From positions 163 through 64,162 of the forward strand of contig JAHFLL010000001.1 of the NCBI GenBank assembly GCA_023244895.1: a DNA stretch of 64,000 nt, given 5' to 3'. Origin of the DNA: Candidatus Liptonbacteria bacterium. Lineage in GTDB: Bacteria; Patescibacteriota; Minisyncoccia; UBA6257; 2-01-FULL-56-20. Below are positions 26,715 to 54,154 of the stretch, one piece after another. Position numbers and translations under genes: made by a program. Below the pieces are notes generated by a model. It was not told the DNA's origin. It made no database searches and was given only the letters and a program-made list of their open reading frames with translations. How positions within the stretch are numbered: the first letter of the stretch is position 1; the number at the start of each line of letters is the position of its first letter.

Positions 26715-26779
26715 AATGCTTCTATGGCAGACGGGGATTAGGGGTCATTTTCGCTCTGCGGCCCGCGGTTCGACTCCCC
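26715..26779 (-). other. truncated copy (C) of tRNA-flanking conserved element
   Basis: On the minus strand it reads GGGGAGTCGAACC, the reverse complement of the tRNA-Gly T-loop and stem. The conserved GCGGGCCGCA follows, then a diverged copy of the tRNA-Gly 3' end (gacccctaatccccgtctgcca). Confidence 0.45.
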
Positions 26780-26788
26780 ATAACCACA

Positions 26789-26830: not shown

Positions 26831-26904
26831 TGGAGCGGGTAAGGGGAGTCGAACCCCTCTCATCAGCTTGGAAAGCTGAGGTAATACCGATATACGATAC
26901 CCGC
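26831..26904 (-). tRNA. tRNA-Gly (anticodon UCC), CCA encoded
   Basis: I folded the cloverleaf by hand. The acceptor stem is GCGGGTA/TACCCGC and the anticodon stem TCAGC/GCTGA. The anticodon loop TTTCCAA gives anticodon TCC, and the T-arm is AGGGG-TTCGACT-CCCCT. Confidence 0.85.
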
Positions 26905-27759: not shown

Positions 27760-27833
27760 GCGCATGTAGCTCAATTGGTTAGAGCCCCAAGCTTATACCT
27801 TGGTGGTTCCAGGTTCGAGTCCTGGCATGCGCA
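27760..27833 (+). tRNA. tRNA-Ile (anticodon UAU)
   Basis: The acceptor stem is GCGCATG/CATGCGC, the D-stem GCTC/GAGC and the anticodon stem CCAAG/CTTGG. The anticodon loop CTTATAC gives anticodon TAT, and the T-arm is CCAGG-TTCGAGT-CCTGG. No CCA is encoded. Confidence 0.85.
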
Positions 27834-27835
27834 CA

Positions 27836-27879
27836 AAAAACAGAATGTGATATTCTTTACGAGTATCACGTTCTGTTTT
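27836..27879 (+). terminator. bidirectional rho-independent terminator
   Basis: aaaacagaatgtgata ttctttacgag tatcacgttctgtttt has an A-tract on one side and a T-tract on the other. Confidence 0.7.
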
Positions 27880-27884
27880 ATATG

Positions 27885-27975
27885 GTAGGACTCGAACCGC
27901 GGGCCGCAGGCTCCGAAGAGGAGCCGAAGGTTTCGAGCATAGTAATGCGAGAGGCGAGTCCTGGCATGCGCACCA
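27885..27975 (+). other. conserved tRNA-flanking structured element, copy A (tRNA-Ile associated)
   Basis: It begins GGTAGGACTCGAACC, the reverse complement of the tRNA-Ile T-arm. It ends GAGTCCTGGCATGCGCACCA, a 20-nt direct copy of the tRNA-Ile 3' end. The core is shared with copy B and contains two covarying hairpins. Confidence 0.6.
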
Positions 27976-52211: not shown

Positions 52212-52657
52212 ATTAATAATAATCCCAAGGCTAATACGGATAATATTAACTCAATTTTGGAATTATTGGGTATGAAGCCTCTGAACCCCCATTTGCTAAA
52301 GGGCACGAAGGGCTGGTGCGCGTTTTTCATAAGATAATCCAAAAATATATGAATCGCCTGAAAGAGTGGTAATATCCACCACCGAATATCGGGGTAGGTA
52401 AGATTAATCAATAGCCCAATCAGTGATCCGACGACCAGGCCGGGCAGTAGCTCTTGTATCCAGCTGTGGTGGTTTTGGTTGTTCATCCGTTGGCCAGTTT
52501 TTATAAATTCTAGAAATGTTTTTCGCCAACCAGGCTTGAATAGGTGATCTATATCTACCAGGACTCCGCCCGCTAAAGCAACTATCATTTCCGGAACTTG
52601 CAGACCCAGTCCTTTCCCGAGCCAAACAGTTACGGCGATATGGGTCGTTATCAGCAT
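52208..52657 (-). CDS. hypothetical membrane protein
   Basis: The 149-aa hydrophobic protein has its annotated ATG overlapping the CCA end of tRNA-Val, so the true start may be internal. Confidence 0.45.
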   Translation of the reverse strand: MLITTHIAVTVWLGKGLGLQVPEMIVALAGGVLVDIDHLFKPGWRKTFLEFIKTGQRMNNQNHHSWIQELLPGLVVGSLIGLLINLTYPDIRWWILPLFQAIHIFLDYLMKNAHQPFVPFSKWGFRGFIPNNSKIELILSVLALGLLLI

Positions 52658-52733
52658 GGTGCGCGCTAAGGGATTCGAACCCCTGACCTTCTCGGTGTAA
52701 ACGAGACGCTCTAACCAACTGAGCTAAGCGCGC
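52657..52733 (-). tRNA. tRNA-Val (anticodon UAC), CCA encoded
   Basis: The acceptor stem is GCGCGCT/AGCGCGC and the anticodon stem TCTCG/CGAGA. The loop TTTACAC gives anticodon TAC, and the T-loop is TTCGAAT. Confidence 0.85.
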
Positions 52734-52778
52734 AGATTCCATTATCCTAAACGAAAGCAGACGTTGAATCAACCTTGT

Positions 52779-52847
52779 CGGGCCGTCGGGAATCGAACCC
52801 GATCTGCGTGTACCCAAAACACGTGTACTACCGGTATACTACGGCCC
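52779..52847 (-). tRNA. tRNA-Pro (anticodon UGG)
   Basis: The acceptor stem is GGGCCGT/ACGGCCC and the anticodon stem CGTGT/ACACG. The loop TTTGGGT gives anticodon TGG, and the T-arm is CGGG-TTCGATT-CCCG. Confidence 0.8.
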
Positions 52848-53008
52848 GCCTCCACTCCGTTTAGGCGGGCAGGCCCGCTCCAATGGAATGTCTTTTGTCG
52901 AGGCTACGACGCTTGTCCGCCTAAGGAGGAGGCAAGCCCGCTCAAACACAGTGAATCGTAGCCTCTTTAAATTATCTTATTTTTCGTCTATTATCAAACC
53001 CGTCCATT

Positions 53009-53080
53009 GCCCTCGTAGCTTAATGGATAAAGCAGGGCTCTTCTAAGGCCTTGATGGGGGTTCGATTCCCTCCGGGGGCA
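53009..53080 (+). tRNA. tRNA-Arg (anticodon UCU)
   Basis: The acceptor stem GCCCTCG/CGGGGGC has one G-U pair. The anticodon loop CTTCTAA gives anticodon TCT, and the T-arm is GGGGG-TTCGATT-CCCTC. Confidence 0.8.
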
Positions 53081-53126
53081 CATAGGAAAGAAAGCATCTA
53101 AGCAGGACGTTTTGTTTCATTTTAAA

Positions 53127-53216
53127 GCCGGAATCGAACCGCGGGCCGCAACTCGCGAAGAGCGAGTGAAGGTCTCGAGTTTAGTAAAACGAGAGGCGAT
53201 TCCCTCCGGGGGCACA
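53127..53216 (+). other. conserved tRNA-flanking structured element, copy B (tRNA-Arg associated)
   Basis: It begins GGAATCGAACC, the reverse complement of the tRNA-Arg T-loop region, and ends CGATTCCCTCCGGGGGCACA, a 20-nt direct copy of the tRNA-Arg 3' end. The core matches copy A with compensatory hairpin changes. Confidence 0.6.
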
Positions 53217-53305
53217 ATAAAAATCGCCACGATACGGGAACTTTATTTCCCGGTATTTTAGGCGTGCTATAATTGGACGCAGAAGGTCTTTAAAATAATA
53301 TTTTA

Positions 53306-54154
53306 ATGTCTAGATCTATTCGTAAGTTTGTTTTACAGATTATCGTGCCGGTCACGTTATTGGTGCTACCTATTTTCCTGCCAGCCTACAATTCAACGTT
53401 TGATGTATCAATATTGCTCACAGCTGTTTCTTTGGTTTTTGCAATATTAGTGGGATTTTTTATCGCCGCAGCCACGACGAATTATCTGCGTTTGCAGTCG
53501 CTTATCGCGGACGAAGACAGTGCCCTTATGAGCATTTTCCGTCTAGGCAAGATGGTTCAACCATCTATTACGGCCAAGCTTAGGAGATTGATTGATGATT
53601 ATGCGACCTTCGCGCTTGATTTTGAATTAGGAGAGTATGTGGACAAGACAAAAATTCAGTTTGACGCACTCATATCTTTTCTGGATGGTCTTTCTCCTAA
53701 AGGTGCCAAAGGGATGGAACTTTTAGGGAACCTTCAAGACAAGAAAGATTTAATGATAAGAACGCGACAGGAAATAACGCTGGTAGCCAGAAAAGTCGTT
53801 ACCGGATTGCACTGGACAGTGCTCGTTTCCCTAGATGTTTTGTTGGTCTTTCTGCTCCTGTCTCTACGGGATGGGGGAATAGTACTTTCTCTTATAACGG
53901 GGATACTTTCCGCCTCGCTTTATCTGGTGCTGGTCCTCCTCCATGAAATTGACAGTAATGTGTTCTTGGAAGAGATGCTTGCGTATCAAGATACTCAAAT
54001 GGTTTTTGAAACGATCGGCACGATGAAATATCTTCCAGGGATAGCCCTTAAAAATAAAAGAGTCGCCAAGCCGAGGGGAGATTATAGGCTGGGCATATTA
54101 AAAGGTGGCTCAGATCTCGCGGAGAGAGAGATAAAAGTAATACGCGGGGTCTGA
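53306..54154 (+). CDS. hypothetical membrane protein
   Basis: The 282-aa protein has several TM segments. A TATAAT lies at about 53268. Confidence 0.5.
   Translation: MSRSIRKFVLQIIVPVTLLVLPIFLPAYNSTFDVSILLTAVSLVFAILVGFFIAAATTNYLRLQSLIADEDSALMSIFRLGKMVQPSITAKLRRLIDDYATFALDFELGEYVDKTKIQFDALISFLDGLSPKGAKGMELLGNLQDKKDLMIRTRQEITLVARKVVTGLHWTVLVSLDVLLVFLLLSLRDGGIVLSLITGILSASLYLVLVLLHEIDSNVFLEEMLAYQDTQMVFETIGTMKYLPGIALKNKRVAKPRGDYRLGILKGGSDLAEREIKVIRGV

Follow-up and report, generated by a model that had tools for sequence, protein, structure and literature searches.

In the 64,000-nt stretch of Candidatus Liptonbacteria DNA analysed here, referred to as the window, the gene for tRNA-Arg is followed by a short element whose ends resemble the 3' part of the same tRNA. 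This raises the question of what kind of element is present at this locus, and how it acquired the termini of its neighbour. In the preliminary description, the layout was given as tRNA-Arg, a spacer and the element. This was borne out, since the tRNA is called by both ARAGORN and Rfam, the 46-nt spacer contains a weak hairpin, and the element, designated copy B, scores 98 bits over 53123-53216 on the plus strand with a covariance model from 49 copies, the alignment of which itself contains the window copies A and B. The neighbouring genes code for bestrophin-like, YdjM and DHFR proteins. The locus is composed as follows.

52966..52994, plus strand: promoter-like site TTTAAA-17-TATTAT, 5' of tRNA-Arg (consensus match only)
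53009-53081 (ARAGORN) or 53009-53080 (Rfam tRNA, 66.8 bits), plus strand: tRNA-Arg(TCT), the target or neighbour
53063..53082, plus strand: X, first copy of the 20-nt direct repeat, tRNA-Arg C56 to A73 plus CA (repeat search)
53081-53126, plus strand: spacer of 46 nt (part 53083..53122), weak hairpin, -9.3 kcal/mol, z -2.9
53127..53136, plus strand: 5' arm GCCGGAATCG, in which GGAATCG forms helix P1 with CGATTCC of the tail
53137..53150, plus strand: conserved junction AACCGCGGGCCGCA, exact in all three window copies
53151..53167, plus strand: hairpin P3, ACTCGC-GAAGA-GCGAGT
53168..53173, plus strand: junction GAAGGT, second base variable (A/T/G)
53174..53195, plus strand: hairpin P4, CTC-GA-GTTT-AGTA-AAAC-GA-GAG, with tandem G·A pairs and a tetraloop
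53197..53216, plus strand: tail X2, exact tRNA-Arg C56-A73 plus CA, the first 7 nt pairing with the arm as P1
53235..53262, plus strand: intrinsic-terminator-like hairpin (53235-53252) with T-run, predicted to close the unit
53268-53273: TATAAT downstream of copy B, read from the sequence

The element had been described as ending in a 20-nt direct repeat of the tRNA-Arg 3' end plus 2 nt, and an exact match was found: CGATTCCCTCCGGGGGCACA is present at 53063-53082 and at 53197-53216, running from C56 in the T-loop to the discriminator base plus 2 nt, with 114 nt between the two repeats. The 5' arm had been considered to be antisense to the T-arm. This holds only for GGAATCGAACC, which makes up 11 of the first 14 nt of the element, and not for the outer GCC; GGAATCG together with the following AACC is the reverse complement of tRNA residues G52-C62. 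Between arm and tail lies a conserved core of about 60 nt. The terminator hairpin with its T-run and the TATAAT box reported behind the element were both located. In the unit of copy B, the tRNA is preceded by a promoter-like site and the tail followed by a terminator, while the spacer has no terminator-like site. The site at 52966..52994 is likely to be the start of a transcription unit comprising tRNA-Arg and the element, judged from its consensus match, and the element would probably be cotranscribed with the tRNA as a plus-strand RNA.

Two further copies are present in the window.

27760..27834, plus strand: tRNA-Ile(TAT), neighbour of copy A (ARAGORN, Rfam)
27837..27879, plus strand: copy A spacer, a perfect 19-bp palindromic hairpin, -24.9 kcal/mol, z -9.6
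27881..27974, plus strand: copy A of the element, 102 bits (covariance model)
26831..26904, minus strand: tRNA-Gly(TCC), neighbour of truncated copy C (ARAGORN)
26722..26784, minus strand: copy C, internally deleted, 22.8 bits, E 2e-4

The colinearity claimed for copies A and B was recovered by alignment, with the loops GAAGA and (T)AGTA(A) being identical. Their stems covary as had been proposed, both sides having changed with pairing kept in five of the six pairs of hairpin 1 and in two of the three inner pairs of hairpin 2. The tail of copy A (27955-27973) corresponds to tRNA-Ile C56-A73 plus C; at 27972-27975 the sequence is ACCA, in place of the ACAA of the tRNA-Ile gene. Copy C, which follows tRNA-Gly(TCC), is a third window copy that had been overlooked. 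It retains the arm GGGGAGTCGAACC, the reverse complement of the tRNA-Gly T-arm, and the segment GCGGGCCGCA, has lost P3 and P4 and ends in a degenerate tail. Within the window, GCGGGCCGCA has exactly three occurrences, and all of them lie shortly 3' of a tRNA.

The distribution of the element outside the window was followed in two independent pattern scans, one of genomes and one of metagenomes with a different anchor. Of 89 stretches matched in the genome scan, 52 were real copies, all in metagenome-assembled genomes of the CPR; the metagenome scan yielded 94 further stretches. In total, 113-124 distinct copies were identified, all in genomes or metagenomes of Patescibacteria (CPR). The presence of the same architecture in more than 110 distinct copies elsewhere excludes a chance origin. 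In three scans of viral contigs (IMG/VR), no copy was identified, the two matches being chance hits in high-GC coding DNA; a phage or plasmid vector was rejected on the viral-contig scans. Wherever an adjacent tRNA was detected, it lies upstream and on the same strand as the element, and the distance from N73 to CGAACC peaks at 54-68 nt. In the fetched CPR loci, 91 of 171 tRNAs, with 26 anticodon types, carry the element at their 3' side, and tmRNA also precedes it in two loci (L152, L155). Occupancy is patchy even within one tRNA type.

The element comprises about 95 nt, or about 115-135 nt with its spacer, and the core is near-invariant across Saccharibacteria and Parcubacteria. A subfamily of the L101 type lacks AACCGCG entirely. 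In most copies other than B, the spacer is a long perfect palindrome, and in about 70% of copies a strong terminator-like hairpin separates tRNA and element. This hairpin could be the terminator of the tRNA itself, since 46% of the element-free tRNAs also have a strong hairpin.

A comparison to known families gave no assignment. With Rfam 15 at gathering thresholds, only seven tRNAs were detected in the whole window, and the element was not matched; with E values up to 10 over 52600-53350, the only match to 53127-53216 was an 11-nt tmRNA fragment of 7 bits. A tRNA or tmRNA gene was rejected on both strands, as neither is called by ARAGORN, RF00005 or RF00023. In the literature, no description of the element was found. 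TIGR-Tas systems encode tigRNAs in arrays of 36-nt units with box C/D-like edges beside a Tas gene (PMC12045711). Guide arrays of this kind were rejected, as the element copies are single, lie beside tRNAs and have no Tas-like neighbour. Since neither a described RNA family nor a described mobile element was matched, it probably represents a novel type of genetic element targeting tRNAs, or else a tRNA-linked RNA.

The fold is supported by covariation. Helix P1, formed by arm and tail, closes a three-way junction, and the core consensus consists of AACCGCGGGCCGCA, P3 with the loop GAAGA, the junction GNAGGU and P4 with its tandem G·A pairs, which are replaced by Watson-Crick pairs in one copy (L060). 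Three helices covary strongly. In a covariation analysis of the stems, 91% of the cells were paired compared to 72% in shuffles, with changes on both sides in 19 of 24 pairs, and slid controls gave 35-50% paired. In P3, all six pairs covary across 49 copies, and both P3 and P4 were recovered by RNAalifold. For P1, the inner seven pairs are kept in at least 82% of the copies and the outer three are paired in 61-67%, while pairing of the acceptor part is usually lacking. In a 3'-anchored sample that was unselected on this segment, conservation of the 5' junction amounts to 90-97%. The invariance of AGGT in the sample obtained with the scan pattern is not independent, because the pattern demanded AGGT.

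The helices also bear on the question of the strand. G·U pairs exceed A·C pairs by 9:1 in P3 and by 34:5 in P4, which favours the plus (tRNA) strand, and the outer arms decay without such a bias (28:25). A tRNA or tRNA-like gene on the minus strand was rejected on these wobble pairs and because no model call was obtained; a minus-strand T-stem is impossible, since its 5' side is constant and its 3' side variable. A tRNA minihelix, in which acceptor and T-stem run on as one helix of approximately 12 bp ending in 3' NCCA, was not found either. With the tmRNA domain, viral tRNA-like structures and mascRNA, the element shares a helix-closed 3' end consisting of T-stem and acceptor 3' strand, sometimes with CCA. 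In contrast to these, it has no T-loop, its acceptor 5' strand is usually unconserved, the mimicry is specific for the neighbour, and tRNA and tmRNA models remain below threshold.

The fold might instead be one of single-stranded DNA, either as the hairpins of an HUH/Y1 transposase or an attC-like site, or as a palindromic DNA repeat of the REPIN/PATE type. The hairpin-rich architecture and the long perfect palindromes adjoining it would agree with this, G·T pairs being tolerated in single-stranded DNA as well, and no dedicated promoter was found, in that no position-specific TANNNT box is present upstream of the arm among 113 copies. However, no RAYT- or TnpA-like gene recurs nearby, the wobble strand bias fits the transcribed sense, and strict co-orientation with tRNA transcription, a tandem G·A motif and tetraloops would more typically be expected of an RNA, so that we regard a role as a DNA fold as improbable.

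Central to the problem are the ends. The first description had claimed that one element lies beside unrelated tRNAs with termini taken from its own neighbour, which held in two independent samples, and the recurrence of such termini argues for a recurrent mechanism and not for a single duplication, as was also proposed. Next to the occupancy of tRNAs of many anticodon types, this is supported by the tails: in 48 of 85 copies, the tail is identical to the adjacent tRNA from C56 to the discriminator base, with no mismatch over 18 nt. The direct repeat always starts at C56 and has a length of 10-32 nt, 19 nt being the commonest. The arms are inverted copies of the tRNA 3' strand, with two loci (L004, L086) being informative at G·U positions, and behind one tmRNA (L152), the arm matches the reverse complement of the tmRNA end perfectly over 20 nt. 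In L075a, the order is X plus 14 nt direct, an inverted copy, the core, X plus 14 nt direct again and a second terminator. Common to the ends of all copies are only GGAWTCG and CGAWTCC, while the outer parts follow the neighbouring tRNA. In three loci (L116, L104, L121), the tail differs from the adjacent tRNA and resembles the orthologous tRNA of another lineage. Where the pairing of the tail with the tRNA 5' strand was examined, point differences between tail and tRNA were partly wobble-preserving, four being not. Tail residues 66-73 are unpaired within the element.

Two observations bear on the template of the copied ends. CCA is present in 11 of 62 tails, two of these rows being self-matches. 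In nine cases, tail positions 74-76 read CCA where the gene flank has none, and the reverse was found in two. This excess is suggestive of a retro-copy of mature tRNA; beside it stand several repeats that run 7-14 nt into the 3' flank of the gene (L075a, L146, L134), and which imply that at least these were copied from DNA or a precursor.

Tyrosine integrases targeting the T-loop are classically recognized by direct repeats of the tRNA 3' end beginning in that loop, and islands and prophages of this type likewise leave the tRNA intact. The element could accordingly be the scar of such an integration, with the direct repeats as attL and attR and the core as leftover attP arm, and the direct repeat of the tRNA 3' end is confirmed here. 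However, only about 115-135 bp lie between the repeats instead of an integrase-bearing island, with no integrase nearby, and no copy was found in the viral contigs scanned. Integrase lineages are tRNA-specific, whereas one core occurs with 26 anticodon types and tmRNA. Moreover, the additional inverted copy and the RNA-type covariation of the hairpins would be left unexplained. Integrase scars are therefore largely refuted and very improbable.

A second reading starts from the arm, in which 5'-GGAWUCG|AACC-3' spans the junction GGUU|CGAWUCC. A small ribozyme of guide, core and exon, or a ligase splint, would on this sequence match align a tRNA body ending in U55 with a tail starting at C56. 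As a result, the tRNA 3' end would be replaced or repaired, or the segment of X, spacer, arm and core would be excised like an intron. The logic is that of group I P1/P10 and trans-splicing, with the arm read as a P10 strand followed by a P1 strand: AACC fits G52-U55 and GGAWUCG fits C56-C62, by inspection and as sequence compatibility only. As in group I guide and trans-splicing ribozymes, a two-sided 5' guide, a structured core and a 3' exon duplicating the target are present, and the last base of the core, immediately before the tail, is a G. Within the element, nothing pairs with AACC, which is nevertheless 90-97% conserved in the 3'-anchored sample, and catalytic RNAs typically have such unpaired junction nucleotides of high conservation; GACC, present in three loci (L103, L184, L185), would give a U·G junction pair. 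In silico, an alternative fold of the cotranscript is energetically favoured, in which the 5' acceptor strand of the tRNA pairs with the tail, and its T-arm with the arm of the element.

Against this stands the size of the core, whose 60 nt are far below any group I core. The P3-P9 core (RF00028) was not found, no Rfam family, those of introns and self-cleaving ribozymes included, matched with E values of up to 10, and the junction is mostly U-A rather than the U·G pair of a group I splice site. In addition, the L101-type subfamily lacks the AACCGCG segment, and the upstream tRNA is complete, therefore splicing is unnecessary. A ribozyme or splint of this kind is consequently quite improbable. 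Distinctly unlikely, too, is a new class of RNA-based agent targeting tRNAs, a minimal catalytic or enzyme-recruiting RNA with an internal guide that would read the universal T-loop. It would attach its own tRNA-specific 3' tail to tRNA bodies or, by way of RNA or cDNA, become joined to tRNA genes. Some of the upstream tRNAs contain group I-like introns (L022, L026, L089, L074), which are separate from the element; a relic of a group I intron was rejected, as the tRNA introns lie apart from it in these loci. In a paper on tRNA introns of Patescibacteria, the introns were located at position 35/36 in the anticodon loop.

Several signs point to mobility. Copies at different tRNAs within one genome are more alike than copies between genomes (0.23 versus 0.42, permutation p < 1e-4). 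Truncated copies are known from the window (copy C) and from L031 and L175, tandem copies from L107 (two) and L148 (three), and orphan copies also occur. The comparison of syntenic loci that had been suggested revealed a tRNA-Arg(TCT)-bestrophin locus without the element (L092), with 62% protein identity, which is the sole clean comparison of a filled and an empty site. Of the other candidates, L097 (80% identity) is rearranged, L099 (76%) contains only a tail-like relic, and L094 and L095 show no synteny. None of the copies was found linked to a transposase, integrase or reverse transcriptase, and all-against-all clustering of the open reading frames within ±3.5 kb of the 52 loci of the genome set revealed no neighbour protein recurring in more than six loci. 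A 5'-UTR regulator of the next gene was rejected: in 74% of cases this gene is co-directional, but it lies at distances from 3 to more than 1000 nt, with no recurrent gene family.

These data have to be weighed against a noncoding RNA that benefits the host. Such an RNA would be cotranscribed, processed by tRNA-maturation enzymes and present a tRNA-specific mimic of the acceptor 3' strand and T-stem, in some cases with a CCA end, on a conserved core binding protein or RNA. It might act as a decoy for tRNA 3'-end enzymes or toxins, regulate termination or the maturation of the tRNA 3' end, or serve as a spare 3' half. The core is highly conserved across CPR classes and its helices covary, the strand is the same in all cases with a detected adjacent tRNA, and more than half of the tails are fully identical to their tRNA though residues 66-73 are unpaired. 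The CCA excess in the tails, the predicted pairing of tRNA and element in the cotranscript, and TATAAT-like boxes upstream of some orphan copies (L072, L128) also speak for a host function. However, many copies are decayed, truncated or short-tailed, the element is patchy even for the same tRNA type and missing from the syntenic L092 locus, the arm has not kept its acceptor part, some tails mismatch their tRNA, and the strong terminator-like hairpin lies ahead of the element in most copies. On balance, a host RNA appears rather unlikely.

What these data show is the family itself, its position and strand, the ends matched to the target and the covarying helices. We see an even chance that copy B is a non-autonomous, selfish and structured mobile element of tRNA 3' flanks, with termini built from its target. 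Elements of this kind would colonize the 3' flanks of tRNA-like genes. The arm is an inverted copy of the T-loop and the T-stem 3' strand of the neighbour and, in fresh copies, also of the acceptor 3' strand. Copying may proceed by copy-choice (template-switch) synthesis, for which the near-palindromic T-arm GGTTCGAA / TTCGAACC would provide the seed. The tRNA 3' end would thereby become triplicated in the order direct, inverted, direct, and the core would lie where the inverted copy meets the second direct one. The fold might then be kept by selection for propagation or for contact with a conserved trans factor. Counting against a mobile element is the near-invariant core, which is unusual for MITE-like elements and fits a host function at least equally well. 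The same applies to the lack of a linked transposase, integrase or reverse transcriptase, of a target-site duplication of constant length and of a promoter at a conserved distance, to the spacer hairpin as a possible terminator of the tRNA itself, to the single clean pair of filled and empty sites, and to the tails that differ from their tRNA.

The comparison to known mobile elements shows how far such an element would depart from them. Like Correia/NEMIS, RUP, ERIC and REPIN/BIME repeats, and like MITEs in general, it is short, noncoding and present in multiple copies per genome, with inverted ends that form a hairpin if cotranscribed, with decayed, truncated and tandem copies, and with copies within a genome being most alike. 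Unlike these, it extends over a superphylum with its near-invariant core and is confined strictly to the same-strand 3' flank of tRNA or tmRNA. Instead of terminal inverted repeats constant in all copies, it has target-specific ends, of which one is inverted and the other direct; a fixed-length target-site duplication is absent, the repeats from C56 varying as given above, and no cognate transposase was found. To our knowledge, there is no transposon, intron or integrative element in which the inverted and the direct end are both built from the target.

The primer-binding sites of LTR retroelements consist of 18 nt complementary to the tRNA 3' end and are bounded in the T-loop. Similarly, the segment copied into the element comprises about 18-21 nt, bounded by the tRNA 3' end and the T-loop (C56-A58), and the minus strand of the element reads as such a site, with TGG where the tail has CCA. 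In contrast to LTR elements, no reverse transcriptase or LTRs are present, and the structured strand is the tRNA-sense strand. With class IIC group II introns and insertion sequences found after terminator hairpins, the element shares the location a few nucleotides 3' of a terminator-like hairpin, but it has neither the intron domain structure nor an intron-encoded protein. Group II introns were reported to be absent from tRNA genes of Patescibacteria (PMC13011429).

For genome annotation, the duplicated tRNA 3' ends will be misread by island and tRNA finders as att sites or tRNA fragments, and the covariance model from this analysis can be used for annotating the element. Mobility of the element would imply a mechanism of insertion that is new and has the T-arm at its centre. 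If it is a functional RNA, its copies would form a family of mimics of the 3' ends of particular tRNAs, built on an ultra-conserved core, and if a catalytic reading were true, it would provide replacement or repair of tRNA 3' ends, or a new target-templated retromobility in bacteria otherwise without group II introns. Around half of the sampled tRNA genes in element-containing loci are occupied, despite the tiny genomes of Patescibacteria, which have little room for junk. The element would thus be either a very successful parasite or a part of tRNA biology that has been overlooked in a large part of bacterial diversity.

For copy B, the element is located directly downstream of a tRNA-Arg(TCT) gene. 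The features of this locus, and those of the two other copies in the window, are as follows.

52966-52994: promoter-like site 5' of tRNA-Arg
53009-53081, forward strand: tRNA-Arg(TCT), identified by ARAGORN and the Rfam tRNA model
53063-53082, forward strand: first direct repeat, CGATTCCCTCCGGGGGCACA, the last 20 bases of tRNA-Arg(TCT)
53197-53216, forward strand: second direct repeat, an exact copy of CGATTCCCTCCGGGGGCACA, forming the tail of copy B
53235-53252: terminator-like hairpin 3' of the copy B tail
27881-27974: copy A, 3' of tRNA-Ile(TAT) and ending with the tRNA-Ile 3' end
26722-26784, reverse strand: copy C, 3' of tRNA-Gly(TCC)
26831-26904, reverse strand: tRNA-Gly(TCC), the neighbour of copy C

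The repeat CGATTCCCTCCGGGGGCACA spans the tRNA from C56 of the T-loop to the discriminator, plus CA; the 20-nt direct repeat of the tRNA-Arg 3' end plus 2 nt, claimed in the preliminary description, is exact at both sites. The 5' arm GCCGGAATCG and AACC follow a spacer of 46 nt that has a weak hairpin (-9.3 kcal/mol), and the arm region contains GGAATCGAACC, the reverse complement of tRNA-Arg G52-C62. Located 3' of arm and AACC are the block GCGGGCCGCA and a first hairpin of 6 bp with the loop GAAGA. The junction GAAGGT connects it to a second hairpin, which has tandem G·A pairs and the loop AGTA; a lone G then leads into the tail. With a promoter-like site ahead of the tRNA, no terminator-like site detected in the spacer and a terminator-like hairpin after the tail, copy B and tRNA-Arg look like a single transcription unit. 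Between the divergent tRNA-Pro and tRNA-Arg genes, a GC-rich intergenic stretch with nested inverted repeats (52849-52968) has, on either strand, a far more stable predicted fold than shuffled sequence (z -3.4 and -4.3). It may be a leader of tRNA-Pro or a further structured RNA.

The 10-mer GCGGGCCGCA has three exact occurrences in the window, all downstream of a tRNA. Copies A and B are colinear with stems that differ by compensatory changes, and they are the same element, as had been proposed. Copy A is preceded by a perfect 19-bp palindromic hairpin (-24.9 kcal/mol), and its tail at 27972-27975 reads ACCA, versus ACAA in the tRNA-Ile gene; 9 other copies likewise have N73-CCA in the tail and a gene flank other than CCA. 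Copy C, preceded by a strong palindromic spacer hairpin, has kept a tRNA-Gly-specific arm, GGGGAGTCGAACC, and GCGGGCCGCA; both hairpins were lost by internal deletion and the tail is degenerate. The window itself is chromosomal DNA of the CPR type, encodes FtsH, DHFR and S1, and has a GC content of 46-55% (mean about 48%).

A genome scan with an exact pattern and one genome per species matched 89 stretches, 52 of which have the full architecture. All 52 are found in Patescibacteria-type MAGs (a few records are titled just 'bacterium'), from Saccharibacteria, the Parcubacteria group, Kaiser-, Nomura-, Harrison- and Adlerbacteria, Paceibacterota and Spechtbacterales. The other matches were rejected as chance matches in coding sequence of high-GC taxa. 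With the other half of the element as anchor, a scan of metagenomes identified 94 additional stretches with the same organisation. The family is real, not a product of chance, and much larger than the preliminary description had it. No copies were present in the viral contigs scanned, no match was obtained in Rfam and no description was found in a full-text literature search; no known family among those tested accommodates the element.

In the genome set, ARAGORN calls a tRNA on the same strand for 38 of the 52 copies, its end lying 13-74 nt ahead of the invariant AACC, and several others follow a tRNA-like 3' end missed by ARAGORN. At such missed tRNAs (L022, L026, L074/L120, L089), the sequence upstream of the 3' ends resembles a group I intron (…GATATAGTCC…), in line with a report that tRNA introns are abundant in Patescibacteria (PMC13011429). 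Across all fetched CPR loci, the element follows 91 of 171 tRNAs with 26 anticodon types, and 48 of 85 tails are free of mismatches to the adjacent tRNA over 18 nt; the same element is thus found beside unrelated tRNAs with ends taken from its own neighbour, as first suggested from two copies. Leu, Ala, Val, Thr, Cys and Phe tRNAs make up 0/91 of the element-bearing versus 34/80 of the element-free tRNAs of these loci, which could reflect either a preference for certain targets or the place that a tRNA has in its operon. Two copies on metagenome contigs, L152 (Ga0265297_10000014) and L155 (Ga0209541_10026388), lie downstream of what was read as a tmRNA (ssrA) 3' end, and over 20 nt the L152 arm is perfectly reverse-complementary to the tmRNA T-arm and acceptor end. 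The spacing between N73 and CGAACC has its main peak at 54-68 nt and lesser ones at 32-41 and 2-12 nt; at L037, L064 and L103 the arm directly adjoins the end of the tRNA or extends into it.

Structural covariation was also present in the larger sample. For three helices in 49 copies, 91% of cells were paired, compared to 72% in shuffles and 35-50% with slid partners; 19 of 24 helix pairs showed double changes, and both hairpins were recovered independently by RNAalifold. G·U outnumbers A·C by 9:1 in P3, the GAAGA hairpin, and by 34:5 in P4, the hairpin with tandem G·A pairs, which favours the tRNA-sense strand. In P1, the arm-tail helix, whose outer part decays, the two are nearly balanced (28:25) and favour neither strand. 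An ssDNA-level palindromic repeat, to be weighed against the strand bias of P3 and P4, is considered improbable. In a sample anchored on the 3' half, conservation is 90-97% along the unpaired 5' junction AACCGCGGGCCGCA. Subfamilies (L193, L149, L101, L104, L121, L153, L118, L141) carry inserts of ~20-50 nt splitting GCGGG^CCGCA or replacing the AACCGCG segment; extra hairpins occur inside GCGGG^CCGCA (L193, L149, L101 type) and before GAGAGG (L067 and L071, a 23-nt insert, CCCAGTAGGTCATTCTACTGAAT). Tolerance of extra hairpins at defined sites is typical of structured RNAs. In the predicted MFE fold of a tRNA plus element transcript, the tRNA 5' acceptor strand pairs with the element tail, and the T-arm and 3' end pair with the element arm, making a competing conformer plausible. 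A guide-core-exon ribozyme or splint is regarded as quite improbable.

The tail is copied from the adjacent tRNA starting at C56, with a commonest exact run of 19 nt; most tails with mismatches agree over 10-14 nt, beyond which the similarity ends sharply. The arm repeats the tRNA 3' strand in inverted orientation rather than the 5' strands in direct orientation, as seen at L004 and L086, where G·U pairs tell the two apart. In most copies the spacer consists of a long perfect palindrome that begins no more than a few bases from the tRNA end, so that tRNA 3' end, spacer and arm form one extended palindrome. At L075a, the tRNA end with 14 nt of flank in direct orientation is followed by a short hairpin top and the same 37 nt inverted, now degenerate, then by the core, the tRNA end with the same 14 nt again direct, and a second, different terminator. 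This order reads as a direct-inverted-direct triplication of the target 3' end with the core at the second junction. To our knowledge, no cut-and-paste, integrase or intron mechanism yields such a triplication, and integrase att scars are a highly improbable origin. Copy-choice synthesis, with the near-palindromic T-arm (GGTTCGAA) as microhomology, would produce it, as we infer. Several direct repeats run 7-14 nt into the tRNA gene 3' flank, which may speak against a pure retro-copy origin.

That the element is a host RNA mimicking tRNA ends is a possible, though rather unlikely, explanation. In its favour are the near-invariant core across deep CPR lineages, the perfect conservation of most tails although residues 66-73 are unpaired within the element, and the excess of CCA at tail positions 74-76 where the gene flank has none (9 cases versus 2 the reverse; CAA is the commonest reading of tRNA gene flanks in element-bearing genomes).

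Other observations suggest a past as a selfish or mobile element. No recurrent protein family is encoded beside the element. Copies at different tRNAs within a genome are more alike than copies between genomes (0.23 versus 0.42 at variable stem positions, permutation p < 1e-4, 15 pairs), and the tails of L116, L104 and L121 are closer to another lineage's orthologous tRNA than to the neighbour tRNA. Internally deleted copies (copy C, L031, L175) exist, as do tandems: L107 has two units with a 134-nt period, both ending in a tRNA-Tyr tail, which unequal exchange between the direct repeats would produce, and L148 has three units within about 280 nt, degenerate on their 5' sides. There are also orphan copies without an adjacent tRNA. 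In a relative, the syntenic tRNA-Arg(TCT)-bestrophin locus L092 is devoid of the element, a comparison that had been proposed for copy B. In the closer relative L099 (165-425, 76% protein identity), a relic resembling the copy B tail is retained together with the terminator and promoter seen at copy B (…GCGGTTCTCTCCGGGGGCAC…); the approximately 230 nt preceding this stretch are neither tRNA-Arg nor the element and have no Rfam match.

Upstream of seven orphans (L007, L033, L072, L082, L087, L113, L128), an A-rich stretch is followed by GGTTCGAAyTT..GT….AAT, a motif which could be a promoter or a T-arm relic; in L072 and L128, TATAAT occurs some 50 nt 5' of AACC. At L092 (2600-2960), the tRNA-Arg(TCT) lies between long direct and inverted repeats (cttcagcctgaggctgatccgcc…; cccacactcatcccc / ggggatgagtgtggg), a tRNA-flanking structure different from the element.

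Taken at about even confidence, the element would be a non-autonomous, structured mobile element, specific for tRNA and tmRNA 3' flanks, which copies its ends from its target.
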